Assembly: GCA_020344755.1 (NCBI GenBank)
Contig: CP070829.1
Location: 472,973 to 536,972, forward strand
Direction: 5' to 3'
Source of the DNA: Gemmatimonadales bacterium
Lineage (GTDB): Bacteria; Gemmatimonadota; Gemmatimonadetes; Longimicrobiales; Gaopeijiaceae
DNA: 64,000 bases
The notes under the pieces are model-generated. The model did no database searches. It was not told the DNA's origin and saw only the letters and a list, made by a program, of their open reading frames with translations. A program made the position numbers and the translations under genes. Shown here one piece after another: positions 9,849 to 27,423 of this stretch; position 1 is the stretch's first letter; every line of letters begins with the position of its first letter.

Positions 9849-11129
9849 TTAGATTGTCCGCAGCCCCTCGTAGTGCTCCACGAGAGCGTCGCGCAGCACC
9901 TCCTCGAACGCCAAGAGCTCGAACCCGAGCTGGTCCGCCAGCGACTCGGCGAAGCGGCCTCGATGAAAGCAGCGTGCGAAGATGAGTGCCTCGGGCTCCC
10001 GAGCGCGCAACAGCATGGCCGCCCGGAAGTTGACCACCTCGGCGGAGGAGGAGAGCAGGTATACGGGATCGCCGTCCAGACCCGAAAGCTCGTCCCGCAC
10101 GCGAGCCCAGGTTCCCGGATCCTCCAGGTCGCCATCCACGGTGGAGTGGGCCAGGGTGTCCAGGGGGACGTCCGCTTCGAACTGCCGGATCTTCTGTTCC
10201 GCCTCCGCGTCCACGACCAGGATCCGCTCGATCTCGTCTCCCGCGGTGACGCGCAGGAGTTCCAGGATCGTCTGCGCGAATCGGCCGAACCCTCCGAGGA
10301 CGACCACGTCGCGGTATTCCGTTTCCTCGAAGTGTGGATGCAGGAAGCGCTCGTAGAGGTGGAGCGCACCGATGCGGTGGGTGTTGAAGACCAGAGGCTG
10401 GGATCGTCCCGACTTCGCCGCACGGGCCTTCTCGCGGACCATCCGGTTGACGGGCCGCAATAGGCTCAGGTCCGCCACGTGCACCGCGACGGGAAGGGTG
10501 GGACAGCGCTCGGTCGCGCCCCATCCCACGTCGAGGTTCACGAGATCGTCGTCGGTGACGACGATCATCCGCTCCGCCCTCTCCATCCCCAACAGACCGA
10601 GAGTCGCGGGGCGTCGGGCATCTGCGTGCAGGACCTGGACGCCGCCGAAGCGGTCCACCTCGCTCGTGTTGACCAGGCTCTGGAGATGATCCACCAGGAG
10701 CACGGGCGTATCCGGCTCCACTGCGCGGATCGCCTTGAGGTAGGCCAGGCCCACGGGTCCGGCCCCCACCAGGATCACGTGGTCCTGCAGGCTGCTGGCG
10801 TCCCGGGTCTTCGGCCGAAGAAGCCGCAGAACTGCCTCCAGGACCGCGGTGGTGGTGATGGCCGGCGCCAGAAAGTAGGCAACCCACAGGGCTGCGCGGG
10901 CCCAGACCGTCCCCCCGCTCGGGGCACCCAGGTCCAACCCGCCGAATACGAACAAGCCCGCCGCATAGTAGATCCAGGCCAGAATCGGCTCGTCCACAAG
11001 GCTCGCGATGCCGGTGGTCCCCACACCGCTCGCGATGGAGCCCAGCGTCAGCAGGAAGACGAGGATGACCCCCGCCATGCGTACGACGTTCCCGGTCGAT
11101 ACCGGCCGGGTCCGGCGTGGCGTGGTCAT
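9849..11129 (-). CDS. Two-TM channel-like protein with tandem RCK/TrkA-N domains
   Basis: ATG overlaps the upstream stop (ATGA). TM, pore-like WIYYAAGLFVFGGLDLG, TM; HVILVGAGPVG (GxGxxG); second domain VVVLGGFGRFAQ. Confidence 0.72.
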   Translation of the reverse strand: MTTPRRTRPVSTGNVVRMAGVILVFLLTLGSIASGVGTTGIASLVDEPILAWIYYAAGLFVFGGLDLGAPSGGTVWARAALWVAYFLAPAITTTAVLEAVLRLLRPKTRDASSLQDHVILVGAGPVGLAYLKAIRAVEPDTPVLLVDHLQSLVNTSEVDRFGGVQVLHADARRPATLGLLGMERAERMIVVTDDDLVNLDVGWGATERCPTLPVAVHVADLSLLRPVNRMVREKARAAKSGRSQPLVFNTHRIGALHLYERFLHPHFEETEYRDVVVLGGFGRFAQTILELLRVTAGDEIERILVVDAEAEQKIRQFEADVPLDTLAHSTVDGDLEDPGTWARVRDELSGLDGDPVYLLSSSAEVVNFRAAMLLRAREPEALIFARCFHRGRFAESLADQLGFELLAFEEVLRDALVEHYEGLRTI

Positions 11130-12055
11130 TCCTCCGGGCCCGCTTCGCCGCCGGGGCCACTCCGGGTAGACCGAAGGAGCTCCCGGACCCGATCCCGGTG
11201 CTCGCGCCGGACCCCGGCGATGAAGGGCCCCCTGTGACCCACGGGATCGATGGGGTGGCCGGCGAGGTCCACCACCTCCCCTCCGGCACCTCGAACCACG
11301 AGAAGTCCCGCCGCGAGATCCCACGGTGCCGCCTCCGCCGCCTCCCAGAGGTTGACGTAGGTGAAGTGGCCGCGGGCAGCCCCCAGCAGCGCCCACGACG
11401 GCGAACCACCGGGAGCCCGAACCATCCGGACCCGCTTTTCCCTCCACCCCTCCATCAGGGTGTCCAGGGCGTGCCCCGCGTGTCGGGCGGGATGGACGTT
11501 CACCAATACCGGCGACGCTTCGCCCGCGGCCTGGGGAAGATCCACGCCCTGGTGACCCTCGCCGAAGACGTCCAGACGAAGGAGCCGGCTCCTTTCGCCG
11601 GTGACGGCATAGCCAACCTCGCCCGTCAGTGGGCTCGCGATGAGCCCGATCCGGGGCTCGCCGTCTTCAAAGATGGTCATCACGCTGGCGAAGGTCTCCG
11701 TGTGACCGAGGTAGGCGTAGGTGCCATCGATGGGGTCGAGGACGACCGTCCATCCGGCCTCTTCCAGGCTTCCCCCGGTCTCCTCTCCCAGGAACGAGGC
11801 CCCCGGTGCGAAGTCCTTCAGCGCCCGGCGCACCAGGGCTTCGATCTCGGATTCCAGCACCGTGGTGGGGGATCCATCCGCCTTCACCTTGGAGACCGCC
11901 GCGTGCTCCGCCAGAAGTCGGATCCTCCCCGCCACCGACAGCAGGGCCTGCAACCCGAACTGCACCCAGGAATCGTCATCCAGGCTCCCCGGGGGCATGG
12001 ACTCTCCCGTCCGCGCCCGGGCCAGCGCATCTCGCTCCCGAAGCTGCAGGCTCAT
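11126..12055 (-). CDS. Inositol monophosphatase (FIG) family phosphatase
   Basis: FLGEE, VLDPIDGT and WDLAAG motifs; start 5 nt after the upstream stop. Confidence 0.88.
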   Translation of the reverse strand: MSLQLRERDALARARTGESMPPGSLDDDSWVQFGLQALLSVAGRIRLLAEHAAVSKVKADGSPTTVLESEIEALVRRALKDFAPGASFLGEETGGSLEEAGWTVVLDPIDGTYAYLGHTETFASVMTIFEDGEPRIGLIASPLTGEVGYAVTGERSRLLRLDVFGEGHQGVDLPQAAGEASPVLVNVHPARHAGHALDTLMEGWREKRVRMVRAPGGSPSWALLGAARGHFTYVNLWEAAEAAPWDLAAGLLVVRGAGGEVVDLAGHPIDPVGHRGPFIAGVRREHRDRVRELLRSTRSGPGGEAGPEE

Positions 12056-12060
12056 GGAGC

Positions 12061-14631
12061 TCACCCGGTCCTCGAGAGGAGGCGCTCGGCCACGTCGCCG
12101 GCGACCCGCCCTTCGTCGAGGGCCCGGGTCAGCCCCCGCTGGACCGCCTCGGCCTGGCCCGGAGGGATGCGGTTCAGCGTGGACGCATCCAGGGTCCACC
12201 ATTCCAGCTCCTCGAAATCACCCACGGGCTCGAAGAGATCCGGCACGGTCTCCTCCTCGCCGTCGAGAAGGTACTCCCGTACTTCGACCCAGGCGTGATC
12301 CGTCTGTCGCGGGTCGTAGGCATAGCCCTCATGGAGGTGTTCGATGCGACCACGTGGCCGCCACCCTGTCTCCCGCTCCATGACCCGCACGAGGCCCTGG
12401 TCGGAATCCTCGTCCGGAAGAAGGAATCCCTTCGGCAGTTCCAGCAGTGTCTCTCCCTCCCTGGAGCCCAGGAGGATCTCCAGGTCGCCGGTGACGGCAC
12501 TGGTCCGGAACACGACGCCCAACACCGAGGCATTGGCCCCCCAGAGGCCCAGGAGCCCTCGACCCGCCAGGCCGGTACGGCCCCTGGGGTTGAGGGGCCG
12601 GCCCTCCTCGTCGCGGAATCGCGCCGGTCGCTCCTTCAGCTCCCCCGGGTCCATCTCTTCCGGATCCGCCCACCCCGCGGGGTCCCGGTCCCGGCCCGCC
12701 GCCACCACCGAGGAATCCACGTGGTAGGGCGGGTCGTACCCTTCGCAGTCCAGGACCCAGAGCGACTCGTCGATGGAGATCCGTTGCCGGGGTGGGTAGG
12801 TGGCAGGCCGCTCGGCCCGGATCTTCAGGTGGAAGTCGTCCGCCACGAGGTTCAGGGCGATGGACTCGCACGACGAGAGGGCATAGGCCAACTGGGTCTC
12901 ATCGCACTCCCCGCGATCCCTGCGCTTGTCGAAGCTCAGCGTGTGCATGGCGTACCGCAGCAGCGCGACCCGGTACACGAGCCACTCGTCCTCCGCCTTC
13001 AGGGAGAAGCACTTCTGTCGAATGAGCCGGACCGTCGACAGGATCTTCCGGAAGCGCAGATCCCACTTGGCGAACTTCAGGGACTCGGGCAGCTCGTCGG
13101 CCGCCGCCGGAATCCGTTGATTCTGGAGGTACTCCTCGAATGCGCTCAGGCGGGGCAGGTCCTCCGGGTCGAAGGCCTTGCTCATGACGAACTTCACGTC
13201 GTTCTCGAGCTTGGCGAAATCCAGCTCCACGGGATGAACCGCGCTGTGGGTCCAGTCGATGAACCACACGTTGTCCCCGTCGTCGCAGATCACGTTGGCG
13301 AAGTTGAGGTCGCCATGCTGCAGGCATACCTCCGCAGGGATGGAGTCGGGGTTCCGTGCGACCAGCCGGATGACACTCGCCAACTGATCCAGGTCCACGT
13401 GCTCTTCCGTGAACCCGGACTCGGCCAGGTATCGGTGAATCAGGGTGCCGTTCTCCCGTAGCCAGACGAGCTGCTGCTCCGATTGAAGGCCCAGAGCACG
13501 AAACGGAGCGACCTGGCTTCTCTCCAGGGTGTTCTCGTAGAGCCGGCCGACCAGCAGGTCCAGGGATTTCTCGAATCGAATGAGAAAGTGCCGGATCGCG
13601 GCCTCGCTGTCTGCTTCCTCGAAGTGGTCCTGTAGGGTCACCGGCCGGCCCTCCATGGCGGCCAGCTCCATCCCCACCCCCAGGAGGTCCCCTTCGACCA
13701 CCGGGTAGCCGAAGGTGGGCACGTGCTTCCCGAGGAAGTCCTTGACCTGGTGGTATCCGTCCAGCTCGCGCCGCATCTGGGAGAAGTCGTCGATCTTGAT
13801 GACCATGGGCTCGGTGCGAGCCTCCCCCTTCCATCCATCCGCCAGGAAGAGCAGGCTGCCGCTGAAGCCACCGGCCAGGGCGCGGAGATGGGTCCGGGTC
13901 CAGTGCATGCAGATGAGCTGGACGATGCGCTGGGCATCCGGAGACATGCGCCCGCGGGCCTCCTCCGGTTCGATCCGGCAGGGCTGCCCGCTGGACGGGT
14001 CCACGTGGTTGGGATCGACCCCCGCCCACCGCGCTGCGGACTCCAGGTCCAGCACCACCTCCACCCCGGAACGGGGGAGATTGTGGCGCAGGGTGGCGAA
14101 GTGAGCCTCGGACGTGGCACTGCCCACCAGGTGGGGACAGACCGCCACACGCTCGAAACCGAGGACGGTGCGAAGGAACATGGCGATGGTCTGCACACGC
14201 TTCTCCGTGTGGCACCCCACCACCAGGAACTCCACGTCCGCCGATCCGGAACGCACCGTTTCCGCATCCACTGAAGCCGCACTCGCAATCGCCTCGATCA
14301 GCTCTCTCCAGGCGATCCGACCACGAGGGCAGGGAACCACGGCGGCTCCGGCCAGGAGGTCCTCCAGAGGCTCGACCCATTCGGCGAGCATTCCCTCGCC
14401 GGCGGATTCCTCCCCGCCTGCAACGGGATCCTCACGCAGGAGGATCACGCCGGCTCCGGTGGCATCCACCGCGGCTCGGAGCAGCTTCGGGAGCGGACCC
14501 TCGCCGTAGCGTCGCCCCCGCCCCATCAACCGGGCGATCTCTCCGGCTCCCAGGTTCGACGGGATGCCGTGGAATTGCCTCTCGGGGCTCAGGGCTCCCC
14601 GGACCAGGCTGTCTGCGATCACGATGTTCAT
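12061..14631 (-). CDS. Three-domain protein: isochorismatase-like / APH-type kinase / NUDT9-like ADP-ribose pyrophosphatase domain
   Basis: IVIAD and FLVVGCHTEKRV (cysteine-hydrolase-like); GGFSGS, VIKID, HGDLNFANV, WFIDW (kinase); YDPPY, WADP, NPRGRTGLAGRGLLGLWG, GYAYDPRQTDHAWVE (NUDT9 signature). Confidence 0.8.
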   Translation of the reverse strand: MNIVIADSLVRGALSPERQFHGIPSNLGAGEIARLMGRGRRYGEGPLPKLLRAAVDATGAGVILLREDPVAGGEESAGEGMLAEWVEPLEDLLAGAAVVPCPRGRIAWRELIEAIASAASVDAETVRSGSADVEFLVVGCHTEKRVQTIAMFLRTVLGFERVAVCPHLVGSATSEAHFATLRHNLPRSGVEVVLDLESAARWAGVDPNHVDPSSGQPCRIEPEEARGRMSPDAQRIVQLICMHWTRTHLRALAGGFSGSLLFLADGWKGEARTEPMVIKIDDFSQMRRELDGYHQVKDFLGKHVPTFGYPVVEGDLLGVGMELAAMEGRPVTLQDHFEEADSEAAIRHFLIRFEKSLDLLVGRLYENTLERSQVAPFRALGLQSEQQLVWLRENGTLIHRYLAESGFTEEHVDLDQLASVIRLVARNPDSIPAEVCLQHGDLNFANVICDDGDNVWFIDWTHSAVHPVELDFAKLENDVKFVMSKAFDPEDLPRLSAFEEYLQNQRIPAAADELPESLKFAKWDLRFRKILSTVRLIRQKCFSLKAEDEWLVYRVALLRYAMHTLSFDKRRDRGECDETQLAYALSSCESIALNLVADDFHLKIRAERPATYPPRQRISIDESLWVLDCEGYDPPYHVDSSVVAAGRDRDPAGWADPEEMDPGELKERPARFRDEEGRPLNPRGRTGLAGRGLLGLWGANASVLGVVFRTSAVTGDLEILLGSREGETLLELPKGFLLPDEDSDQGLVRVMERETGWRPRGRIEHLHEGYAYDPRQTDHAWVEVREYLLDGEEETVPDLFEPVGDFEELEWWTLDASTLNRIPPGQAEAVQRGLTRALDEGRVAGDVAERLLSRTG

Positions 14632-14640
14632 GGACGATCC

Positions 14641-16053
14641 CTAGAGAATGCAACCGGCGGAGACCAGCTCTTCGAGCTTGGCCGACTTGGTCGAGGCGAC
14701 CTCCTTGAGCACCCCGCGGAATTCCGGATAGTCCCCACGAAGCCGTTCGAAGTCGCCGGTGGACAGAAAGAAGACGTCGCTGTGCGTCGTGGCCTGCACC
14801 GAGCCGGTGCGTCGTTCGCCCAGCAGGAGCGACAGGTCTCCGAAATAGTCCCCGGCCTCGAGTCCGCCCAGGTGGCGGGCGCCTCCCTCCATGGTGATGG
14901 TCAGCTTCCCGCTGCTCACGAAATAGACGCCCGTGGCCACCTCCCCCTCCCGAACCACGAAGCTCCCGGGGACGAAGACCAGGGGTTGGAGCGACATGAG
15001 CAGAGCGTTTCGCAGGGCGGGCTCGGCGTGGCGGAAGAGGGGCACCTTCTCGATGAGCTCCCGCGTGAGATGGAAGACGACCTCGAGCCGGATGGGGTCC
15101 GGCAGGTCACGCAGGAACTGCTGGGTGCTCGACCCGCGATATCGCTCCCAGATGTACTCGTAGTAGTCCCGGATCTGACGCTGGAGAGGTTCAGGAAGGG
15201 CGCGGCTGCGCAAGTACTGGCTGACTCCGTCCGCCCGGTCCCAGAAGGCCGTCTTCGCTGCGTCGATGGAGCTCACCAGGGAGGCGATGCTCCCGATGAT
15301 GAGCGCGTACATGGAGGCCCCCAGCACCATCACCAGGATGGTGAAGGCATACTCCGCATTCCGCGTCGGCACGATGTCGCCGAAGCCCACCGTGGTGGTG
15401 GTGACGAAACCCCAGTAGAGGGAGCGCAGGTACTGGCTCCCCCGGTCCAACCCGTCGATCCCCGCTGCCACGGTCCAGGAGTCCCGGGGGAATCCTTCCA
15501 CCACCGCCACGAGGAACCACCCGCACGCGATCCAGTGGATCAGCAGGAACACGCCGATCACCAGCTTGCTGATCCTCAGGTAGCCCGTGTTGGTGCTGTG
15601 CAGGCGCTCCCACTGGCGGAACGCGCGGAGGAGGCGTTGGAGCCGAAGGAGCCGGGTCGTACGGAGCAGGAGCACCACCGGCACCCCCGCCACCGCGGCG
15701 CTCGACATCAGGAAGAGGGCATCCAACGGGACGACCCCAAGAAGGTCGGCGGAGAACCCGGACCGACGGTATCGGCGGACCACGGCCGCCGATTCGGTGA
15801 CCTCGCTGCCTCCCGCGCGAAAGGTCGTCCGGAAGTTCAGGAAGATGTCCGCAACGAAGAGGACATCCAGGAGGTACACGAGAAGGCTACCGCCGAGATC
15901 GACCTCCCGCACGAAGACGATCTGGAAGGGGACCACCAGCCCCGTCACCACCACGGCCAGGACGATGACGAGGTCCCACGCCGTTCTGAAGGTCGAGCGT
16001 TCCGGGATCAGGGGCACCGGCGGAGGGATGGCTTGGGCAGCCGCTCCGCTCAA
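14641..16053 (-). CDS. 6TM voltage-sensor K+ channel with C-linker and cyclic-nucleotide-binding domain
   Basis: TTG start overlapping the rsbV stop (TTGA) with a GGAGGG RBS; S4 LLRTTRLLRLQRLLR; filter TTVGFGDIVP; CNBD GDYFGDLSLL...RTGSV. Confidence 0.9.
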   Translation of the reverse strand: MSGAAAQAIPPPVPLIPERSTFRTAWDLVIVLAVVVTGLVVPFQIVFVREVDLGGSLLVYLLDVLFVADIFLNFRTTFRAGGSEVTESAAVVRRYRRSGFSADLLGVVPLDALFLMSSAAVAGVPVVLLLRTTRLLRLQRLLRAFRQWERLHSTNTGYLRISKLVIGVFLLIHWIACGWFLVAVVEGFPRDSWTVAAGIDGLDRGSQYLRSLYWGFVTTTTVGFGDIVPTRNAEYAFTILVMVLGASMYALIIGSIASLVSSIDAAKTAFWDRADGVSQYLRSRALPEPLQRQIRDYYEYIWERYRGSSTQQFLRDLPDPIRLEVVFHLTRELIEKVPLFRHAEPALRNALLMSLQPLVFVPGSFVVREGEVATGVYFVSSGKLTITMEGGARHLGGLEAGDYFGDLSLLLGERRTGSVQATTHSDVFFLSTGDFERLRGDYPEFRGVLKEVASTKSAKLEELVSAGCIL

Positions 16054-16382
16054 AAGCCCTCCAGCGCCTCGGCTTCGGACGGGAAGACCGCGAAGATGGT
16101 ACTGAAGCCGGAGATCTCGAAGACCTCGGCCACCGTCTCGTTCAGCCCGCACAGCCGCAGGTTGCCGCCTCCGCCGCGCAACTTCTTCGCCGTGGCCAGG
16201 AGGACCCGAAGGCCGGCGCTGGAGATGTAGTCCAGGTCGGAGAAGTCCACCAGGACCTTCACGGTTCCGGCCCCTATCAGGTCGTCGAGGGCCTCCTGCG
16301 CTTCGGGGGCCGTATTGGTGTCGAGATTGCCCTCGAACCGGACCACGGCGACACCGTCCTGCTCATCGTGTGAGATCTTCAC
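16050..16382 (-). CDS. rsbV: STAS-domain anti-sigma factor antagonist (RsbV/SpoIIAA-like)
   Basis: EGNLDTNTAP, VDFSDLDYISSAGLRVLL with the phospho-Ser retained, EVFEISGF. Confidence 0.88.
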   Translation of the reverse strand: MKISHDEQDGVAVVRFEGNLDTNTAPEAQEALDDLIGAGTVKVLVDFSDLDYISSAGLRVLLATAKKLRGGGGNLRLCGLNETVAEVFEISGFSTIFAVFPSEAEALEGF

Positions 16383-18088
16383 GTCTGCTCCTCGGTTGGT
16401 TCATTCGCCCCACCTTCGTGAGACAGGTACTTGACCAGCACGACCACATTCCGGTCGGTGCGCCGGGTATACGACGCCTCGTCCATGAGATTCTGGACCA
16501 GGTGGATTCCGAGTCCACCGATCTCGCGCTCTTCCAGCTCGAGCGCAGTGTCGGGCGAACTGCGGCCAAATGGATTGAAGGGATGCCCGTCGTCACTGAT
16601 GCGCACCGCGAGGCGATCGGGCGACAACTCGACTCGCACCTCGATGAGGTGCTCGGCCTCATCCTTGTAGGCATAGGAGATGACGTTGTTGAGGAGATCG
16701 TCGAAGACCAGCTTCATGCTACGGCGGACCTTCTCGGGCATTCCGTAGGCTGAAGCGAACTCGTCGAACGACCGGTTCACTCTCTCGATTTCCTCATACC
16801 GGTTCCCGACTTCGAGCTCCAGGACGTGCATCCCGGCAGCCCCACCCTCCCGGCCGGTGAACTGGACAGCCAGCACCGTCACGTCATCCGCCTGCTCCGC
16901 CTCGGCCTGGAACTTCCAGACGTCCTCGGTGGAGGCGGCCACGAGCTCTTCTACGGAGCCGTAGGCACGCGCTTCCAGGACGCGCACCAGGCGATCTTCC
17001 TCGTACAATGCCCCCGCGGGATCCATGGCCTCCGTGACGCCGTCCGTGTAGACGAAGAGGAAATCGCCGGACTGCAGCGACTCGGCGTCCTCCCCGTAGA
17101 CCAGTCCGTCCACGGCTCCCACCACGGGCCCGTGCCGAATCGCCAATCGTACCACCTCACCCGACGCGCGTCGCAGGTAGGGTGGATTGTGGCCGGCGTT
17201 GCAGTACGACAACTCGCCCGTCGTCACGTCCAGGATCCCCAGCCACAAGGTCACGAACATGGCCGAGTCGTTGTTCTCGGAGATCTCGTCGTTGACGTGC
17301 GTGAGGATGCTTGCCGGAGAGAAGTCGTTGGTCGCCCTGGACTTGATGAGGGTCTTCGTGACGGCCATGAAGAGGGCCGCCGGCACTCCCTTTCCGGACA
17401 CGTCTCCCACACAGAAGCAGAAGCGGTCCTCGTCGATGAGGAAGAAGTCGTAGAAGTCCCCGCCCACCTCGCGGGCAGGCTCCAGCGTGGCGAAGACGGT
17501 GAATTCGTTGCGGTGGGGGAAGGGGGGGAACTTCAGCGGGAGCATACTCATCTGAATGTCCCGGCCGATGTTCAGCTCGCTTTCCATCCGCTCCTTCGCC
17601 GTCGTCGTGCGACGCAGGTTGTCGAAGGATTCCTGAAGTTCCTGGTTCTTGACCGTGAGCTCCCGCATCAGGGCGTCGCGCCCCTTCTCTTCCACGGCGT
17701 CCCGCAGCTCGCGCTGACGGTGCGACTGCCTCGCCTGCGCCTCGATGTGGGGAAGGTGAAGGCTCATCCGGACGCTGGGCTCCCCGTCGACGCGCACGAT
17801 GTGCACGGCATCGAAGAATGCCTCTGCCACGGAGTGGTCCATTCGCCCACCCACGCCCACCAGGTCCAGCACGAACTCCGGTTCGGTCCCGTCCAGGCTC
17901 AGGTGCACGTCGATGCGACCGACCTGCTCGATGCGGTTGGCCGCCCTGAAAAGCTCGGAGGTGACGGCCGCGATCCGCGTGGCGAGCATCGGATCGCTGG
18001 TCAGGTCCTGCAGGAGCCTTCGGATCTTGCCCCGTGCCTCGGGAACCGAGCCCTCGGCTCCACCCAGGATCGTCCCGAGATCGATCAC
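16379..18088 (-). CDS. SpoIIE/PP2C phosphatase (RsbU-like) fused to a C-terminal HATPase (RsbW-like)
   Basis: ESELNIGRDIQMSMLP, VGGDFYDF, GDVSGKGVPAALFM, YTDGVTEA, DDVT; then NVISYAY, DDGHPFNP, GGLGIHLV. Confidence 0.9.
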   Translation of the reverse strand: MIDLGTILGGAEGSVPEARGKIRRLLQDLTSDPMLATRIAAVTSELFRAANRIEQVGRIDVHLSLDGTEPEFVLDLVGVGGRMDHSVAEAFFDAVHIVRVDGEPSVRMSLHLPHIEAQARQSHRQRELRDAVEEKGRDALMRELTVKNQELQESFDNLRRTTTAKERMESELNIGRDIQMSMLPLKFPPFPHRNEFTVFATLEPAREVGGDFYDFFLIDEDRFCFCVGDVSGKGVPAALFMAVTKTLIKSRATNDFSPASILTHVNDEISENNDSAMFVTLWLGILDVTTGELSYCNAGHNPPYLRRASGEVVRLAIRHGPVVGAVDGLVYGEDAESLQSGDFLFVYTDGVTEAMDPAGALYEEDRLVRVLEARAYGSVEELVAASTEDVWKFQAEAEQADDVTVLAVQFTGREGGAAGMHVLELEVGNRYEEIERVNRSFDEFASAYGMPEKVRRSMKLVFDDLLNNVISYAYKDEAEHLIEVRVELSPDRLAVRISDDGHPFNPFGRSSPDTALELEEREIGGLGIHLVQNLMDEASYTRRTDRNVVVLVKYLSHEGGANEPTEEQT

Positions 18089-19224
18089 GAGCCCAACTTA
18101 CAGACGACGACCGTGGCATCGTCGTGGCGCTTGCCGTACTGGGAGACCAGCCGGTCCGCAACGGTCTCCACGCCCTGGTACCGGAGCTGAGGGTAGTCCT
18201 CGAAGTCTGTGCGGTCCGAGATCCCGTCCGTGTGGATGATGAGGACGTCGTCCGGATTCAGCTGAGCTGTCTCGACCCGGGGCGTCTTCACCTGGACACC
18301 GACGGTGCCGGGCATCGAGCCCATTCGTTGTGACGTCGCACCCTGGATCCGGAACACGGTGTTGCCGATGGCGGCGTGACGAACGGTGCCACTCGACAGG
18401 TCGATCCAGCAGACCGAGACCGCCGCACCCACGGTATCTTGGAGGCGATCGTGCAACCGCGTCATGACATGGGCCAGGTCCGGGCTCCCGTGGCTCCTCA
18501 GATGGCGGGTCGCTGCCTTCGCCGCCAGGTGCGCCGAGCGTCCGTGCCCGAGCCCGTCCACGACGCCGATGAGCACCCCGCCCTCCACCTCGGTCACCGA
18601 TACCGCGTCGCCGCTCACCATCTCACCCCGACAGGGCCGATTGACGTGGGCGACCTGCAGGGTGACGCCTGGAGCGACGGAGCTCGGGAAGGACCGGGAA
18701 CCCCGAAGCGTGCCCCGCTCCGCCAGGCGGGCAGTGCCCGTGAGGGCATCCGAGCCCAGACGCCTTCTCACCCGCGCTCCGGACGGCTGGAGCCACTTGC
18801 GGACCACGACGCGTGTCCCTACCCCCACGGTCGATTCGATGTCGAAGTCGTCCATCATCCGCCGCACGCCTGGCAATCCGAGCCCCAGGGTCCCGCTGGA
18901 ACTGAAGTGATCCTGCAGCGCTCGCTGGACGTCATCGATCCCGGGTCCCCGGTCCGACACCGTGATCTGGATCCCCCTGCGTCGCACATCCTGCACTTCC
19001 TCCAGCATGACCGATCCATGCGTGGCGTACTTCAGGATGTTCGTGGCCAACTCGGACACCACCGTTCCGAGGGAGCGGCTCTCGGTGTCCGTGAATCCCA
19101 TGCCCTTCGCAAGGTCCGTGGCAGAAAGGACTGCGTGGTGCACGTCCCCCTCCGCCCGGATTCTCACCGACCGCCGGACTCGGGCCTTATCGTCCACGGC
19201 GTGCCCTGCGCCCGCGTAGCTCAC
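18085..19224 (-). CDS. rsbT-rsbX: RsbT kinase / RsbX phosphatase fusion
   Basis: SELATNILKYA, DRGPGI, TLGLGLPGVRRMMDDF; then SGDAV, VDGLGHG, HTDGISD, DDATVVV. Confidence 0.88.
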   Translation of the reverse strand: MSYAGAGHAVDDKARVRRSVRIRAEGDVHHAVLSATDLAKGMGFTDTESRSLGTVVSELATNILKYATHGSVMLEEVQDVRRRGIQITVSDRGPGIDDVQRALQDHFSSSGTLGLGLPGVRRMMDDFDIESTVGVGTRVVVRKWLQPSGARVRRRLGSDALTGTARLAERGTLRGSRSFPSSVAPGVTLQVAHVNRPCRGEMVSGDAVSVTEVEGGVLIGVVDGLGHGRSAHLAAKAATRHLRSHGSPDLAHVMTRLHDRLQDTVGAAVSVCWIDLSSGTVRHAAIGNTVFRIQGATSQRMGSMPGTVGVQVKTPRVETAQLNPDDVLIIHTDGISDRTDFEDYPQLRYQGVETVADRLVSQYGKRHDDATVVVCKLGS

Positions 19225-19667
19225 GCCTCGGGATCATCCGTCTCCACCTCTTCCCCCAGGTCCTCGGACGCACCCTCTTCGGTCACCTCACCGGAGTTCC
19301 GGTTGCGCATCTTCTCGAAGGCGTCGTCGAGGGTCGCCGTGGCGATCACGCCTTCGGTATCGATCCCCAGATCGATCAGGGCCGACACCACGCCCGCCTG
19401 AAGTCCCGAGAGGACGGTCGACGCTCCCATGAGGTGGGCCATCCGCATGGTATCGCGCAGGGCCCGGAAGTCGGCGGCGTCCATCACGTCCACCCCGGAG
19501 AGGTCGAGGATGACGCCCCGCGCGCCGGACGACCGCACGAACTCCAGCAACTCGTCCCGGAATGCGGCCAGCACCCGGTCGTCGAGATCGATCTGAATCG
19601 ATGCCACGACGCATCCCTGCGCCACCTGCAGTGGAATCCTCGCCCCGGCGTCGAGTCCCCGGCTCAA
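19221..19667 (-). CDS. rsbS: Stressosome STAS scaffold RsbS
   Basis: RIPLQ, VASIQIDLDD, GVILDLSG, LMGASTVLSGLQAGVVSALIDLG; located between rsbR and rsbT. Confidence 0.88.
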   Translation of the reverse strand: MSRGLDAGARIPLQVAQGCVVASIQIDLDDRVLAAFRDELLEFVRSSGARGVILDLSGVDVMDAADFRALRDTMRMAHLMGASTVLSGLQAGVVSALIDLGIDTEGVIATATLDDAFEKMRNRNSGEVTEEGASEDLGEEVETDDPEA

Positions 19668-20575
19668 CGGCCCCGCCCACCCGCTCGGCCAATGGCACCC
19701 ACCGCGTCGGCCAGCGCGTCCCGCATGGTCGCGGTGGTATTCACCTCGCCGACGTCGATCCCCAGGTCGACGATCGTCTGTGCGATGGCCGGCGATACCC
19801 CGGAGATGGTGGTCTCACACCCCATGAGCTTCGTCGCTCGGGTGATCTTGATGAGGTGGTTGGCCACAGCCGTGTCCACCACGCCGACACCGCTGATGTC
19901 GAGAATGAAGACCCGGGCCTGGGTCTCGGCGATCTTGCCCAGAGTCGCGTTCATGATCTCCCGGGAGCGGCGGGAGTCGATGATCCCGACGACCGGGAGA
20001 AAGAGCAGGCCGTCCCAGATCTCCGTCACCGGAGTGGACATCTCCATGAGGGAGCGGGACTGCGCGGTCAGCGTCTGTTCCACCAGGTGGTTGTAGGTGT
20101 CCACCACGATGGCCGTGTCGAAGTGGAGCAGCTTGATGACCGAGTCCAGGATCGCAGCACGCTCTTCGTCCGCGAAATTCCCTTCCCGGACTACCATGCT
20201 GAACAGCTCCTGGAACATGTTCATGCCGGCGAAATAGGTGTTCAACGGGAGCCCGATCCGCGCGTGCGCCTCTCCCACCACGGCCCGCCGCTGCACGTAC
20301 TCGTTGTCGACCGCGCCGTCCATGAAGAACTCCCAGTAGGAGTCCTGCAGCCGCTGGACGCGTTTGAGGGTCTCGGGGTCCGAGAAGAACTCGTCGTAAT
20401 CCGGGTGGTTTTCGAGCCAGTCGTACCATCGCTGCACCAGCTCGTCCATCCGGGCCAGGGCCTCGGCGCCGAACCTGCGGATTCTCTCCAGGTCCTCGTC
20501 GCTGATGCGATACAGCTCGAGGAGTTCCCTATGGTCGAGGTGGGTCGGGGTGGCAAAGTCATGCGGATGGTTCAT
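19664..20575 (-). CDS. rsbR: RsbR with N-terminal protoglobin/sensor globin domain and C-terminal STAS
   Basis: GAGGA RBS; globin helices with proximal GEAHARIGL; STAS MSTPV, LDISGVGVVDTAVANHL. Alternative start at 20623. Confidence 0.88.
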   Translation of the reverse strand: MNHPHDFATPTHLDHRELLELYRISDEDLERIRRFGAEALARMDELVQRWYDWLENHPDYDEFFSDPETLKRVQRLQDSYWEFFMDGAVDNEYVQRRAVVGEAHARIGLPLNTYFAGMNMFQELFSMVVREGNFADEERAAILDSVIKLLHFDTAIVVDTYNHLVEQTLTAQSRSLMEMSTPVTEIWDGLLFLPVVGIIDSRRSREIMNATLGKIAETQARVFILDISGVGVVDTAVANHLIKITRATKLMGCETTISGVSPAIAQTIVDLGIDVGEVNTTATMRDALADAVGAIGRAGGRGR

Positions 20576-20632
20576 GGATTCCTCACGTTGGCTTCTCGAT
20601 TTCCGGGCCGGGGGCACGTTCATTCGGTTCCA

Positions 20633-22504
20633 TCAGTCGGCTTCCCCCGTGGCGACCTCGATGGCGTCCCTCAGTGACCGGGCCGTGGCGATTCCCGACA
20701 TGGTTTCGGGGTGGTCGGCCAGATCGGCGGCGAGTTGGGGACGCAAGCCGGACAAGATCACCTTGGCGCCCATGAGCCGAGCCGCCTGGGCTACCAGGGC
20801 CAGCTCGTCCGCCACCTCGGGATCCAACCGGGACACCCCTGTAAGGTCGACGATGACGCAGCGATCCCCTCGTTCGTGCAGGCGGTGGGTGAGAGAGTCG
20901 CGGATCCGCTGACACCGGGACCGGTCGAGCTCTCCCACCAGGGGGAGCACCACCACGTCGTCGTGTATGGGGATCAGCGGGGTGGAGAGGGCCTCGATGG
21001 ACCTGTTCTGACGGTCGATCAGGTCGCGCAGCGACACGCGCATGGACTCGAAGCTCCGGGCCAGGTCCCCCACCTCGTCCCCACGGTTCATGTCCACGGG
21101 CTGATCCAGCTCACCGCCGGCCAGGGCGTTCGCCGTGACCGACAGGGCCTGGATGGGCCGAACGAGATTGCCAGAGAACCAGTAGGCCAGGAGAGCGAGA
21201 AGGGGGATGAGGACCACCAACGCGACCGCCATTCGACGACCGAGTGTTCCGACGGCGGACATGGCCTCGGCGACGTCGATCTCGCTCATGATCACCCAGT
21301 TCAGGTCCTGGATGTCCAGGGGCCGGAATGCCGAAAACACCTCCACGTCGCGGTAGTCCCTGAAACGGGACTCGCCGGTCTCACCGGCGAGGGCCCGGCT
21401 CACGCCTTCCGTGCGGGCGGGCTGAAGTCCCACCGCACTCTCCTGGGCCTCGATGGATCGCACGACGGTCTCGTCGATCCCGGCCGCCCGGATCGCGGCG
21501 AGATATCCTTCCCGCTCCTCGATGAGGAATCGAGACTCCGTCCGCAGCGTCTCGTCCGGTCCCACCAGGTAGGCCTCTCCCGTCTCTCCGAAGCCCACGG
21601 ACCGCCACGCGCCTCCACTGGTCATGGTCTCGTTGATCCGGCTCAGTGGCATCTGGAAGACCAGGGCTCCCAGGACCTCGCCCTCCTCCACGACGGGGGA
21701 GGCAATGAAGGAGGCCGGGGCTCCGTAAGAGGGAAGATAGGGACGGAAGTCTACGAGCCGAGCGTCGGACGCTGCGGGGAACCCCATCGCCGCCGCGGAG
21801 ACGTCGGCGAGACTGGACTGGCGGTGGGGCCCCGCCGAGAGAGAGGTCCCGAAGTCCACCTCCTTGAAGACGGAGTAGACGATCCGGAGGTCGGTAGCGC
21901 TCACCAGGAAGAGATCGTAGTAGCCGAATCGCTCCAGGAACTGTCGAAGGAGCGGGTGGTAGCGCGCGTGGGCCTCGTCGTAGCGGGTACCCGCATCCGA
22001 AGCGTCCAGGAGGTGCTTGAAATCCAGGGCGTAGGGGTTGTCGCCGATGTAGAGGTGCTGCAGCGACAGGGCCACCGGGTCCTCGGGCCAGTACCGCGAC
22101 AGGGGCCCCGGATCGTCCACGCTGGCCTCGAGTCGGGGATAGAACTCGTTCTGATAGTGGACTCTGACTTCACGTTCCACGTCCGGGGCGGACAGCTGCC
22201 TCGCTGCGAGTTCCTGCTCCAGCGTCGCGGTGGCCGCCGAGAACTCCCGTAGGGCCGCGACCACCATCCGGTCCTCCGAGAGCGTCACCAACTGGTCGCG
22301 AATCGTCTGGAAATAGTCCTCGATCTGTTGGCCCTTGAGCTCCCGTGCTGCGGTGAGTTGGTCGATGGCCTGCTGCTCCAGGGTGCGGACCCCGAGCCGG
22401 TACGACACGACAGCCATCGTGCCGATGGACACCAGCGTGACCAGCGCCAGGACCGAGAGCACCCGGACCCGGATCGATCGGTCACGCTCGAAGGAGCCGA
22501 ACAT
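20633..22504 (-). CDS. Membrane-anchored RsbR paralogue (TM-dCache-like-TM-HAMP-STAS)
   Basis: Two TM segments around a large extracytoplasmic domain (GYYDLFL, DFRPYLPSYGAPASFIASP, GETGEAYLVG); HAMP RGDEVGDLARSF; STAS LSTPLIP...LSGLRP. Confidence 0.85.
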   Translation of the reverse strand: MFGSFERDRSIRVRVLSVLALVTLVSIGTMAVVSYRLGVRTLEQQAIDQLTAARELKGQQIEDYFQTIRDQLVTLSEDRMVVAALREFSAATATLEQELAARQLSAPDVEREVRVHYQNEFYPRLEASVDDPGPLSRYWPEDPVALSLQHLYIGDNPYALDFKHLLDASDAGTRYDEAHARYHPLLRQFLERFGYYDLFLVSATDLRIVYSVFKEVDFGTSLSAGPHRQSSLADVSAAAMGFPAASDARLVDFRPYLPSYGAPASFIASPVVEEGEVLGALVFQMPLSRINETMTSGGAWRSVGFGETGEAYLVGPDETLRTESRFLIEEREGYLAAIRAAGIDETVVRSIEAQESAVGLQPARTEGVSRALAGETGESRFRDYRDVEVFSAFRPLDIQDLNWVIMSEIDVAEAMSAVGTLGRRMAVALVVLIPLLALLAYWFSGNLVRPIQALSVTANALAGGELDQPVDMNRGDEVGDLARSFESMRVSLRDLIDRQNRSIEALSTPLIPIHDDVVVLPLVGELDRSRCQRIRDSLTHRLHERGDRCVIVDLTGVSRLDPEVADELALVAQAARLMGAKVILSGLRPQLAADLADHPETMSGIATARSLRDAIEVATGEAD

Positions 22505-24306: not shown

Positions 24307-25743
24307 CTACGTGTTGAAGTAGAGGGAGAACTCGCCCGGGTGCGGTCGAAGCCGGACGAAATCGATCTCGTTCTGACGCTTGTATTCGACCCAGGTCTCG
24401 ATGAGGTCGGGCGTGAAGACGCCGTCCTGCACCAGGAAGTCGTGGTCGGCCTCGAGCGCGGTGATGGCCTCGTCCAGCGAACCGGGTGTCCGCTCGATGT
24501 CGGCGCCCGCCCCGCTGGCCGCCAACTCGTAGATGTCTTCGTCCACCGGGTCGGGCGGCTCGATGCGTCTGCGAACCCCGTCGATCCCCGCACACATGAT
24601 GGCGGCGAAGCTCAGGTAGGGATTACACGACGGATCGGGCGTGCGAAACTCGATGCGTTTCGACTTCGGTCCCCCGGTCATGGTGGGGATGCGAATGCAG
24701 GCGCTCCGGTTCCGACCCGAGTAGAGGAGGTTCATGGGCGCCTCATAGCCCGGCACCAACCGCCGGTACGAATTGGTGGTCGGGCAGCAGATCCCGCACA
24801 AGGCCCGCGCGTGGGCCAGCAGCCCTCCGACGAAGTGCAGGGCCACCTCGCTGAGATCACCGTAGCGGCCCGCCTCGTAGAAGACGTTCCGTCCGTCTTT
24901 GGACAGGCTGATGTTGTGGTGCATTCCCGATCCGTTCTCCTGCAGGAGCGGCTTGGGCATGAACGTCGCCGTCTTCCCGAACCGGTTCACGACGTTCTTC
25001 ACCACGTACTTGTACTTGATGGCCGCATCGGCCTGCTGCAGGAGGGGCCCGAAACGGAAGCCGATCTCGCACTGGCCGGCCGCACCGACCTCGTGATGAT
25101 GCAACTCCGGCTGCAGCCCCACCTTCTTCAGGACGTGCGAAATCTTGGACCGGAGGTTGTTGTACTGGTCCACCGGCGGGGCCGAGAAGTACGCCCCCCG
25201 CTGGGCGGCCCGGTGTCCCAGGTTCGGGTCGTCTCCCTTCTCGCCGGTGGACCACGACGCCGCAGAGCTATTCAGGAAGAAGTACCCGTGCTGCGTGGCC
25301 TGGTCGAAGCGTACGTCGTCGAAGATGAAGAACTCGATCTCCGGGCCGAAGTACGCCGTGTCGGCGATCCCCAGCGAACGCAACAGGACCTCCGCCCGCC
25401 GCGCCACGGACCGTGGATCCCGGGAGAAGGTGTAGCGCCCGTTGGGGTCCACGATGTCGCAGAACACCGAGAGCGCCGGATCATCGAAGAAAGGGTCCGC
25501 GAAGACGGATGCGGGATCCGGAATCAGGAGCATGTCGCTCTGGTTGATCCGCGTGAATCCCCGGACCGACGACCCGTCGAAGGCCATCCCGTTCCGGAAG
25601 AGCGCCTCGTCCACCATCTCCGCAGGCAGGGTGAGATGCTGGAGGGTCCCCAGGAGGTCCACGAACTTCAGGTCCAGGAATTCGATCCCCTCGTCGTTGA
25701 TCCTGCGAACCACGTCTCGCGCGCTGGTGGGGCGATTCGGCAT
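24307..25743 (-). CDS. glnA: Glutamine synthetase type I
   Basis: FDGSSVRGF, FGPEIEFF, HHEVGAAGQCE, TFMPKP...NGSGMHH, RLVPGYEAP, NRSACIRIP, RIEFRTPDP; adenylylation Tyr retained in DIYEL. Confidence 0.97.
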   Translation of the reverse strand: MPNRPTSARDVVRRINDEGIEFLDLKFVDLLGTLQHLTLPAEMVDEALFRNGMAFDGSSVRGFTRINQSDMLLIPDPASVFADPFFDDPALSVFCDIVDPNGRYTFSRDPRSVARRAEVLLRSLGIADTAYFGPEIEFFIFDDVRFDQATQHGYFFLNSSAASWSTGEKGDDPNLGHRAAQRGAYFSAPPVDQYNNLRSKISHVLKKVGLQPELHHHEVGAAGQCEIGFRFGPLLQQADAAIKYKYVVKNVVNRFGKTATFMPKPLLQENGSGMHHNISLSKDGRNVFYEAGRYGDLSEVALHFVGGLLAHARALCGICCPTTNSYRRLVPGYEAPMNLLYSGRNRSACIRIPTMTGGPKSKRIEFRTPDPSCNPYLSFAAIMCAGIDGVRRRIEPPDPVDEDIYELAASGAGADIERTPGSLDEAITALEADHDFLVQDGVFTPDLIETWVEYKRQNEIDFVRLRPHPGEFSLYFNT

Positions 25744-25759
25744 GGTCGGCTCCCCTCTC

Positions 25760-26095
25760 CTAGTACAGCGCCCGCGAGCCGCGCTCGCCGGTCCACACCG
25801 TGACCACGTCGTGGAGCTCCGAGACGAAGATCTTCCCCCACCCCCCTGTCTCCATACACCCGCCGGTGATGGCCTCGATGGCGCGCTCCAGCACGGCATC
25901 GTTCACTGCCAGCTCCAGGCGAACACGCTTGAGGAGGGAGACCTCCTTCTTCACGCCCCGGAACATCTGCTGCTCGGTCCGCGGGGCGGTGCCCATGACC
26001 GAGGTGGCCGTCATGTGCCGGATCTCCGCGTCGAACAGGGCCTGCTTCACCGCCGGCAGCTGCTCGGGCTTGATGACGGCAACGATCATTTTCAT
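25760..26095 (-). CDS. glnK: P-II family nitrogen regulator, atypical
   Basis: MKMIVAVIKP, FRG, GKIFV and TGE give PII length and fold; between amtB and glnA; several signature residues are substituted. Confidence 0.82.
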   Translation of the reverse strand: MKMIVAVIKPEQLPAVKQALFDAEIRHMTATSVMGTAPRTEQQMFRGVKKEVSLLKRVRLELAVNDAVLERAIEAITGGCMETGGWGKIFVSELHDVVTVWTGERGSRALY

Positions 26096-26112
26096 TCGCG
26101 AGTCTCCCGAGC

Positions 26113-27423
26113 CTACTCGGTAGTGAAGATCTGGAATCCAGCGTACGACTCGATGCCGTGCTCGTCGATGTCGAGGCCCCGCAACTCGGTCTCGTGCGAG
26201 ACCCGAAGCCCCAGCACCGAGTCGATGGCCTTGAAGACGATCCACATGGCGACGGCGGTGAAGCCGAGGGCCGCCACGACGCCCAGCATCTGGACGCCCA
26301 GGGCACCGAATCCGCCACCCATGAACAGCCCGTCGGCCGACGCCCCGTACGCCTCGCGGCCCCAGAGCCCCACGGCCAGCGTACCGAAGACGCCGCAGAG
26401 GCCGTGGACCGCCACCGCCCCCACCGGGTCGTCCACCCGCAGGGCGTCAATCCAGGCGATGCCGTAGATGCACAGCACCCCGGCGATCGCTCCAATGAAG
26501 AGCGCGGCTCCCGGGCCGACGGCTGCACACGGGGCCGTGATGGCCACCAACCCCGCGAGGGCTCCGTTCAAGGCGAGCATCAGGTCCGGCTTCCCGTAAC
26601 GGATCCAACTGGTCACCATTGCCGTGACGGTCGCGATGGACGGAGCCAGGGTCGTGTTGATCGCAACCCGGGCCACCACGTCCGGCTCCCCCATGCCCAG
26701 CGTGGAGCCCGCGTTGAAGCCGTACCACCCGAACCAGAGGATGAAGACCCCCAACGACGCGAGCGGGAGGCTGTGGCCGCCAATGGCGTTGGGGGAGCCG
26801 TCGGCGTTGAACTTCCCGTACCGGGGACCGAGTACCCATGCCCCGACCAGACCGCTGACGCCGCCCACGGCATGAACCACCGTGGATCCCGCGAAGTCGT
26901 GGAAGCCGATGTCGGCCAGCCATCCCCCGCCCCACACCCAGTGCCCGACGATGGGATAGATGAAGGCGGACAGGATGAAGGAGTACGCCAGGTAGGAGGT
27001 GAACTTCATCCGCTCCGCCACCGCCCCGGCGACGATGGTGGCTGCCGCTCCCGCGAAGACGGCCTGGAAGAGCCAGAAGGCCTCGACGGGAACGCCTTCC
27101 ACCGGTGACTCGGCGCCGGCGAGAAACCACCCCTCGGTGCCGAAGAGCAGCCCCTGCGTGCCGTACATGATGGCGTAGCCAAAGATGAAATAGCCCAGGG
27201 CGGCGAAGGCAAAGTCCAGGAGGTTCTTCATCAGGACGTTGCCCGCGTTCTTGGTACGGACCAGCCCGGCTTCCAGAACACTGAACCCCGCCTGCATGAA
27301 GAACACCAGGATGGCCGCGATCAGGATCCAGAGGGTGTCCAGGGCATTCAAGGCGGCAGCGTCCTGGACCCTGGCAACCAGGGCCGATACGGCCGGGATC
27401 ACGTCGGGGAATGCAGAGCCCAT
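26113..27423 (-). CDS. amtB: Ammonium transporter
   Basis: FFMQAGF, DFAGSTVVHAVGG, LWFGWYGFNAGS, GALAGLVAITA, DDPVGAVAVHG (twin His). Confidence 0.96.
   Translation of the reverse strand: MGSAFPDVIPAVSALVARVQDAAALNALDTLWILIAAILVFFMQAGFSVLEAGLVRTKNAGNVLMKNLLDFAFAALGYFIFGYAIMYGTQGLLFGTEGWFLAGAESPVEGVPVEAFWLFQAVFAGAAATIVAGAVAERMKFTSYLAYSFILSAFIYPIVGHWVWGGGWLADIGFHDFAGSTVVHAVGGVSGLVGAWVLGPRYGKFNADGSPNAIGGHSLPLASLGVFILWFGWYGFNAGSTLGMGEPDVVARVAINTTLAPSIATVTAMVTSWIRYGKPDLMLALNGALAGLVAITAPCAAVGPGAALFIGAIAGVLCIYGIAWIDALRVDDPVGAVAVHGLCGVFGTLAVGLWGREAYGASADGLFMGGGFGALGVQMLGVVAALGFTAVAMWIVFKAIDSVLGLRVSHETELRGLDIDEHGIESYAGFQIFTTE

Follow-up and report, generated by a model that had tools for sequence, protein, structure and literature searches.

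PII proteins are usually presented as alike, binding ATP and ADP competitively and 2-oxoglutarate (2-OG) in a Mg-ATP-dependent manner in the cleft between subunits (PMC4274968), and effector binding in this cleft has been described as a universally conserved mode of PII regulation (PMC4274968). The ligand contacts are listed for the GlnK-dADP and GlnK-MgATP-2OG complexes: Thr29, Gln39, Gly87, (Asp88), Lys90, Arg101 and Arg103 hold the nucleotide, whose adenine is flanked by Phe92; Arg9, Lys58 and the main chain at residues 39 and 41 hold 2-OG; and Mg2+ bridges the three phosphates, 2-OG and Gln39's side chain (PMC8395244). Those residues that bind ligand through their side chains are well conserved family-wide (PMC8395244). 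In E. coli, Arg47 of GlnK blocks the pore of the ammonium channel AmtB (PMC4274968). Here we describe a PII variant, PIIv, encoded in a 64,000-nucleotide stretch of DNA (the window: positions 472,973 to 536,972 of contig CP070829.1, assembly GCA_020344755.1) from a Gemmatimonadales bacterium. Our reading, to which we give about even odds (roughly 0.5), is that PIIv is a GlnK-derived regulator of AmtB, and possibly of glutamine synthetase (GS), in which canonical MgATP/2-OG sensing would have been replaced by another input.

The original prediction, made from the sequence of the window, was that PIIv is missing most canonical effector and modification residues, and every substitution it listed is present. 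In alignments to E. coli GlnB, which agree with HMMER alignments to solved PIIs, we find G27H, Y51K (K50), K58R (R57), D88W (W86), R101T (T99) and R103W (W101), and the T-loop base FGRQKGH is replaced by TAPRTE with a net loss of one residue. G37A is present too, as A or P depending on the position of the gap; the gap placement in the T-loop base is ambiguous, and no alignment puts a Gln at position 39. A further change, missing from that list, lies in the B-loop, where TGxxGDGK has become TGGWGK. At the positions of Gln39, Lys58, Asp88, Lys90, Arg101 and Arg103, PIIv thus carries Pro/Arg, Arg57, Trp86, Lys88, Thr99 and Trp101, and it keeps Thr29, Gly87, Phe90 (equivalent to Phe92), Lys88 and the basic residues at 9 and 57.

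By Pfam score and predicted fold, PIIv is nonetheless a member of the PII superfamily. It matches the Pfam family P-II (PF00543) over residues 1-104 with 67.1 bits (cut-off 25), whereas with the NCBIfam GlnB/GlnK equivalogs (NF008111 and NF007946) it reaches 54.9 bits against a cut-off of 202 and 59.5 against 181, that is, about a third or less of what either requires. An AlphaFold2 (AF2) monomer model, built from a 33-sequence alignment of the family, has a mean predicted local distance difference test score (pLDDT) of 83.7 and the beta-alpha-beta-beta-alpha-beta fold (E2-8, H10-22, E29-35, loop, E55-64, H66-82, E87-93), with the long T-loop of PII proteins between beta2 and beta3; the T-loop itself is of low confidence (pLDDT about 62). 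When the model was compared with the PDB using Foldseek, the top 50 matches were all PII structures, with template-modelling (TM) scores of 0.66-0.78.

The pattern belongs to a whole family. A search of 5.8 billion proteins gave 517 homologues of PIIv at E <= 0.001, and the best 120 of these, 63-99% identical to PIIv, were analysed as its family. The same substitution pattern is found in all 120. Gln39, Lys58, Asp88, Arg101 and Arg103 each occur in 0% of these members and the Lys90 equivalent is K in 42%, R in 36% and H in 22%, whereas in 238 canonical relatives the first five are conserved at 75-90% and all six positions at 75-92%. The T-loop motif of the family is present in 117 of the 120 and its C-terminal motif in 119, and neither is found in any of 94 canonical PIIs. 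Conversely, two PROSITE-type PII patterns, Y-[KR]-G-[AS]-[AE]-Y and [ST]-x3-G-[DY]-G-[KR]-[IV]-[FW]-[LIVM]-x2-[LIVM], match 0/120 members and 1/120 of the family, compared with 37/94 and 82/94 of the canonical PIIs from the loci we fetched. Within the family, H27, T36, E41, Q42, R57, W101, Arg105, Gly106 and Arg108 are invariant or nearly so, with Thr36 and Thr/Ser40 of the T-loop base showing no variation; the equivalent of Asp88, W86, is variable (W/F/S/Y/A/H). The apex of the T-loop, Arg46-Gly47, is invariant in the 33-sequence alignment and its Arg is present in 99% of the 120 members, and so the residue corresponding to Arg47 of E. coli GlnK is retained. The GlnD-modified Tyr51, on the other hand, is absent, and the Lys50 position that replaces it is Arg/Lys across the family. 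The loss of Tyr51 and Gly27 carries little weight, because it is ordinary outside Proteobacteria and Actinobacteria and many PIIs are never modified (PMC4285133); both residues are also variable in ordinary PIIs, with G27 at 48% and Y51 at 41% among the 238 canonical relatives.

Of the columns of the 33-sequence alignment 28 are invariant, and many of these lie in the T-loop; dN/dS among close PIIv pairs is 0.015-0.09. A pattern found again in 120 homologues that are under purifying selection goes far beyond what chance would give. Of the features that define effector sensing in canonical GlnB/GlnK, PIIv fails those that were tested, and canonical ATP/2-OG/uridylylation chemistry is unlikely in this protein.

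In a maximum-likelihood tree with canonical PIIs of many phyla, PIIv and its relatives group into one clade, supported at 100/100, whose stem measures 1.09 changes per column. The clade is weakly nearest to the amtB-linked 'GCGQQ'-type GlnKs of Gemmatimonadota and Planctomycetota, and its nearest canonical relatives in the tree are all amtB-linked. Its members make up a compact subfamily: run against a library clustered at 50% identity, the PIIv profile has only 7 matches below 1e-30, several of them fragments, and beyond those 7 the scores fall to ~110 bits, where the full-length proteins that were checked are mostly canonical PIIs. Query-specific peptide patterns run against genome contigs identified six close relatives, all from Gemmatimonadota, and near-identical sequence occurs in estuarine, mangrove and marine sediment metagenomes. 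PIIv is therefore best described as a distinct, selected and monophyletic subfamily of GlnK-derived PIIs. A distant member of the clade, 47% identical, was seen at 2159-2491 of locus L010 (JAGSGY010000073, from a metagenome-assembled genome (MAG) labelled Proteobacteria); it has a GTAPTSEQ T-loop, His27 and a Trp at the equivalent of 103, and it lies directly after a bestrophin-family channel gene, without amtB. Here a PII plug may have been recruited to an anion channel.

These data can also be read in a more conservative way, in which PIIv is functionally an ordinary GlnK that binds ATP and ADP, and perhaps 2-OG, through substitute residues (Arg/Lys39, Lys/Arg/His88, Arg57, Arg/Lys9, Arg105 and Arg108) and sets AmtB according to energy and carbon status. 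Much of the cleft would allow this, as Thr29, Gly35, Gly84, Gly87/Gly89, Phe92 and the basic residues at 9, 58 and 90 are kept or conservatively replaced, and Arg108 is nearly invariant near the C-terminal segment of the cleft. Furthermore, some solved PIIs, A. fulgidus GlnK2 among them, have lost 2-OG binding yet bind nucleotide (PMC8395244). However, three or four side-chain ligands of the phosphates and Mg have been lost together and the B-loop that wraps the phosphates is shortened, while the Lys90 equivalent is His in more than a fifth of members (22%, as above). The long stem of the clade followed by tight conservation also resembles a change of function and not neutral tinkering, and we consider an ordinary GlnK possible but unlikely.

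The original prediction was to fail if such substitutions were common in ordinary PIIs of the phylum, and they are not the norm there. PIIs in 12 other Gemmatimonadota genomes keep the RxR motif (RIRTGE), GDGK and the Gly of the T-loop base, and some keep Gln39, which rules out such a default. We also surveyed 401 Gemmatimonadota genomes, mostly at least 90% complete, calling GlnB/K-type PIIs at E <= 1e-10: three have PIIv, 150 have the canonical type only and 248 have no GlnB/K-type PII, so that PII-independent nitrogen control seems common in this phylum. The three carriers are the window's own genome (G000), G258 and G315, and PIIv is the sole GlnB/K-type match in each; none of five other sampled genomes of the window's genus has PIIv, one of them having a canonical PII and four no PII. 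A phylum in which PII is dispensable is also one in which PIIv might be a decaying, functionless relic of glnK. This explanation has a negligible probability, and pseudogene status or drift is effectively refuted by the low dN/dS and the conserved columns given above; moreover, the reading frame is intact, synteny is conserved across the related loci examined, the family has hundreds of members and the gene appears to be transcribed.

The window's genome is a single 4.1-Mb contig of a Longimicrobiales-like Gemmatimonadota bacterium. The original prediction had proposed to look in it for GlnD and for a canonical PII. There is no PF08335 domain, the mark of GlnD, and no GlnE domain was found in this genome. 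Besides PIIv, its PF00543 matches are two, an SbtB-like protein and a weak PII-like protein. An additional paralogue beside a normal GlnB/K is thus ruled out here, and G258 and G315 likewise have only PIIv; in carrier genomes PIIv replaces canonical GlnK and is not added to it. The first of the two other matches is a PII-family gene (64 bits, ~1500-1779 of L002, G000:C1:3638617-3641886) that directly follows an SbtA-like permease (192-1481), and the two resemble a bicarbonate transporter pair of the SbtA/SbtB type, here in a member of the Gemmatimonadota. PIIv itself is next to amtB and glnA, while this pair lies at ~3.64 Mb. The second match (1492-1842 of L003, G000:C1:1055303-1058611) is a 116-aa protein scoring 32.5 bits, of a type that recurs in several Gemmatimonadota genomes; it lies between a putative phosphotransferase system (PTS) EIIA/PtsN-like gene and a 443-aa membrane protein resembling a cation/proton antiporter.

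PIIv is adjacent to and co-oriented with amtB, the usual context of GlnK, and is followed by glnA and a gene for a flotillin-like protein (Table 1). The end of amtB is 17 nt from the start of PIIv and the stop of PIIv is 16 nt from the start of glnA. PIIv and glnA each have a Shine-Dalgarno-like sequence, that of glnA being GGAGAGGGGAG, and no terminator-like site lies between these genes. The only strong type I GS of the genome is the one encoded here, and there is one distant GS-like match (PF00120) besides. As a regulator of the GlnK kind PIIv is hence the sole candidate in this organism, and it stands at the principal ammonium-assimilation locus. Wherever a related locus offers enough DNA, at PIIv identities from 99% down to 58%, the order is amtB, PIIv, glnA, Band 7/flotillin. 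In detail, amtB is directly upstream of PIIv in all related loci, glnA follows PIIv in most (none was seen in the short contig L125), and the flotillin gene follows glnA wherever enough DNA is present, including the distant P0122 type. The loci of the nearest canonical relatives read amtB-glnK and, once, amtB-glnK-amtB-glnK-glnA, and none of them has a flotillin gene. Contigs from sediment RNA libraries with at least 99% identity span the amtB/PIIv and PIIv/glnA junctions (25730-26197, 25522-26187 and 25894-26398), which is consistent with co-transcription in situ. Two short RNA contigs (run X25) join 24975/24979 to 25060 inside glnA and skip 80-84 nt; with sides of 21-23 nt in a conserved region of GS, they most likely come from other organisms and do not reflect real processing. 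In the literature we found no description of the PIIv variant, of an AmtB-PII-GS-flotillin unit, or of a link of AmtB/GS with flotillin/stressosome.

Table 1. Features of the PIIv locus, with positions in the window.
Feature	Position	Strand	Description
PIIv (PII variant)	25760..26095	-	intact 111-codon open reading frame, 111 aa; translation MKMIVAVIKPEQLPAVKQALFDAEIRHMTATSVMGTAPRTEQQMFRGVKKEVSLLKRVRLELAVNDAVLERAIEAITGGCMETGGWGKIFVSELHDVVTVWTGERGSRALY
PIIv T-loop			G35-TAPRTEQQMFRGVKKEVSLLK-R57
PIIv B-loop			shortened, T83-GGWGK88
PIIv C-terminal motif			T99-V-W101-TGERG
amtB, ammonium transporter, 436 aa	26113..27423	-	NCBIfam TIGR00836, 453 bits; sole PF00909 match in the window's genome (G000)
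glnA, type I glutamine synthetase, 478 aa	24307..25743	-	NCBIfam TIGR00653, 591 bits
Flotillin-like SPFH/Band 7 protein, 433 aa	22985..24286	-	Pfam Band_7, 83 bits; weak similarity to FloT model
Stressosome/partner-switch module	16050..22504	-	Pfam; accessory, frequent near core, not obligatory
Cyclic-nucleotide (cNMP)-gated ion channel, APH-type kinase-TCAD9-NUDT9/Nudix, inositol-monophosphatase-family protein	11126..16152	-	Pfam; accessory

Alternatively, PIIv might mainly be an adaptor or scaffold directed at GS, bridging it to AmtB in a flotillin-organised patch, largely independently of ligand, for assimilation of ammonia on the spot. Such a role would suit the fact that glnA and the flotillin gene follow PIIv almost everywhere, even at loci with as little as 58% PIIv identity, and without GlnE any control of GS by PII would have to be direct. 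In addition, 39 solved PIIs are matched by the PIIv sequence, and the best is M. mazei GlnK1 from the GS complex 8TGE (PMC10651883). This match is, however, just marginally above those to other PIIs (68.8 vs 62.6 bits). Nor is glnA directly after glnK unique to PIIv, because a Pirellulales MAG (CAZGRF010000039, locus L017, 2223-7331) has the tandem amtB-glnK-amtB-glnK-glnA with canonical PIIs, and synteny alone fails to explain why the cleft has been rebuilt. We regard a GS-directed scaffold as rather improbable. The window GS keeps a Tyr in its C-terminal region in the context DIYEL, though the genome has no GlnE domain; this Tyr aligns with the E. coli adenylylation site NLYDL.

We return to the reading in which PIIv regulates AmtB through another input. 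PIIv would form a trimer and bind with its T-loops to the AmtB trimer from the cytoplasmic side, and the apex Tyr/Phe45-Arg46-Gly47, corresponding to Tyr46-Arg47-Gly48 of GlnK, would enter the pore exit of AmtB and gate the flow of ammonia; contact with the co-encoded GS may occur as well. We infer docking on AmtB because of this Tyr/Phe-Arg-Gly apex, the linkage to amtB, the GlnK ancestry and the clade member adjacent to a bestrophin gene. PIIv is GlnK-like in its context and probably so in its target. Its inter-subunit effector cleft, in contrast, appears to have been rebuilt: Gln39 (the ligand of Mg and 2-OG), the Arg101/Arg103 phosphate clamp, Asp88 and two residues of the B-loop are gone, and His27, Thr36, Glu41, Gln42, Arg57, Trp101 and Arg108, which are invariant and specific to the family, would have taken over their positions. 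PIIv would then be unable to read MgATP/2-OG versus ADP in the canonical way, and the switch would be another small molecule or another mode of binding. PIIv retains Thr29, Phe90 and Gly87 on the adenine side as well as basic residues at 9 and 57, and the obvious candidates would be a nucleotide with fewer phosphates or a carboxylate that binds without Mg-ATP.

The suggestion in the original prediction that PIIv senses another ligand or acts as an AmtB or GlnA adaptor is in this respect the best reading of the missing ligand residues and of the lack of GlnD and GlnE, and the part of its argument drawn from Tyr51 and Gly27 is weak. Its proposal of a 'constitutive' AmtB plug is unlikely: the window's amtB is the sole ammonium channel of the genome, which makes a permanently closed plug implausible.

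Several points weigh against our reading. The loss of ligand binding is deduced from residue identity, position 38 is still basic in one of the possible alignments of the T-loop base, and the compensating basic residues (Arg/Lys39, Lys/Arg/His88, Arg105 and Arg108) make some nucleotide binding possible. The AF2 monomer, with its low-confidence T-loop, is uninformative on the cleft and on docking. The RNA contigs have a depth of about 3, and RNA libraries can carry DNA. Finally, the R47A variant of E. coli GlnK retains AmtB binding in vitro (PMC4274968), and the conservation of Arg46 is for that reason suggestive and not diagnostic.

Downstream of the flotillin gene in the window are two signalling modules. 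The first comprises genes for dCache-HAMP-STAS, protoglobin-STAS, RsbS-like STAS, HATPase-PP2C, PP2C-HATPase and RsbV-like STAS proteins, and the second encodes the channel, the kinase-NUDT9 protein and the inositol-monophosphatase-family protein (IMPase). PIIv could conceivably be the output of these modules, either as a phospho-switch in which the partner-switch kinase and PP2C act on Thr/Ser residues of the T-loop, or through an ADP-ribose-like ligand supplied by the kinase-NUDT9 protein and the IMPase, and ammonium uptake would in that case be gated by stress from oxygen or at the envelope. The invariant Thr36 and Thr/Ser40 in the T-loop base would provide sites, and there is a precedent in the PP2C phosphatase PphA, which dephosphorylates cyanobacterial PII (PMC4285133). 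Many loci, with PIIv identities of 66-99%, have the stressosome set after the core (L004, L006, L007, L108-L113 and L116-L118), and kinase-NUDT9 follows it in the window and adjoins it in L008 and L119, the latter also with the IMPase. The known substrates of RsbT/RsbW-type kinases, however, are STAS proteins, and the modules are separable from the core. The stressosome is absent from L008, L119 and L114 (G258), loci in which the flotillin gene closes the operon and PIIv has all its features, so that an obligatory stressosome is ruled out. Co-distribution of PIIv with kinase-NUDT9 is ruled out as well: the latter is found in just one other sampled genome, G305, where it occurs without PII, and is absent from the PIIv carriers G258 and G315. 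In G305 (L123, G305:C126:3000-22900) genes for the cNMP-gated channel, kinase-TCAD9-NUDT9 and the IMPase are grouped with RsbV-like and PP2C-HATPase genes, and amtB, PII and glnA are missing, which marks the downstream half of the window's operon as an independent mobile module. Because the modules are separable, the rebuilt PII tracks the four-gene core and not its signalling neighbours. Regulation by the stressosome or the kinase, as originally proposed, is therefore not required, and we judge PIIv to be very improbable as the output of either module.

There is a bolder version of the reading that we prefer, and we offer it tentatively, as more doubtful than probable. PIIv may found a PII subfamily in which a new effector replaces adenylate/2-OG and which couples the sole AmtB and the main GS in a flotillin membrane domain; candidates for the effector would be a nucleotide that is less phosphorylated or of the ADP-ribose type, a carboxylate or amino acid in free form, or a covalent mark on the T-loop. 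If a new effector is indeed used, this would be a nitrogen-uptake switch working on inputs outside the carbon/nitrogen/energy triad that is held to be universal for PII. As an amtB-linked clade that is strongly selected and widespread in sediments, PIIv amounts to a natural experiment on PII sensing and AmtB gating without 2-OG, and its fixed pairing with GS and flotillin points to an unstudied, membrane-organised unit of ammonium assimilation. PIIv is a small, soluble protein that is easily expressed, which makes the ligand question directly testable.

Among described systems, the canonical amtB-linked GlnK (E. coli GlnK, 1GNK; AmtB complex, 2NUU/2NS1) is like PIIv in its length of about 112 aa, its fold, its place after amtB, a T-loop of nearly the same length with a Tyr-Arg-Gly apex, the B-loop glycines and Thr29. 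PIIv differs from it in having no Gln39, Asp88, Arg101, Arg103 or Tyr51, in the change of Lys58 to Arg, in the shortened T-loop base and B-loop, and in a genome without GlnD. The unmodified GlnKs (B. subtilis GlnK/NrgB, A. fulgidus GlnK2 and Methanococcales GlnK1/2) resemble PIIv in having no covalent T-loop modification; they serve as valve or plug of AmtB (bioRxiv 10.1101/2023.08.10.552651), and some of them, such as A. fulgidus GlnK2, do not bind 2-OG (PMC8395244). Unlike PIIv, they keep the Arg101/Arg103/Lys90 nucleotide clamp and bind ATP/ADP. M. mazei GlnK1 in complex with GS (8TGE) is a precedent for direct contact between PII and GS in an organism without GlnE (PMC10651883), but it has the canonical effector residues and its extra similarity to PIIv is marginal. 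SbtB, lastly, belongs to another branch of the superfamily and has another partner, yet it too has the PII fold and plugs a co-encoded transporter, the bicarbonate transporter SbtA, with its T-loop; its ligand repertoire has changed (cAMP, AMP and c-di-AMP), and it thereby provides a precedent for a PII pocket that has been re-tuned.

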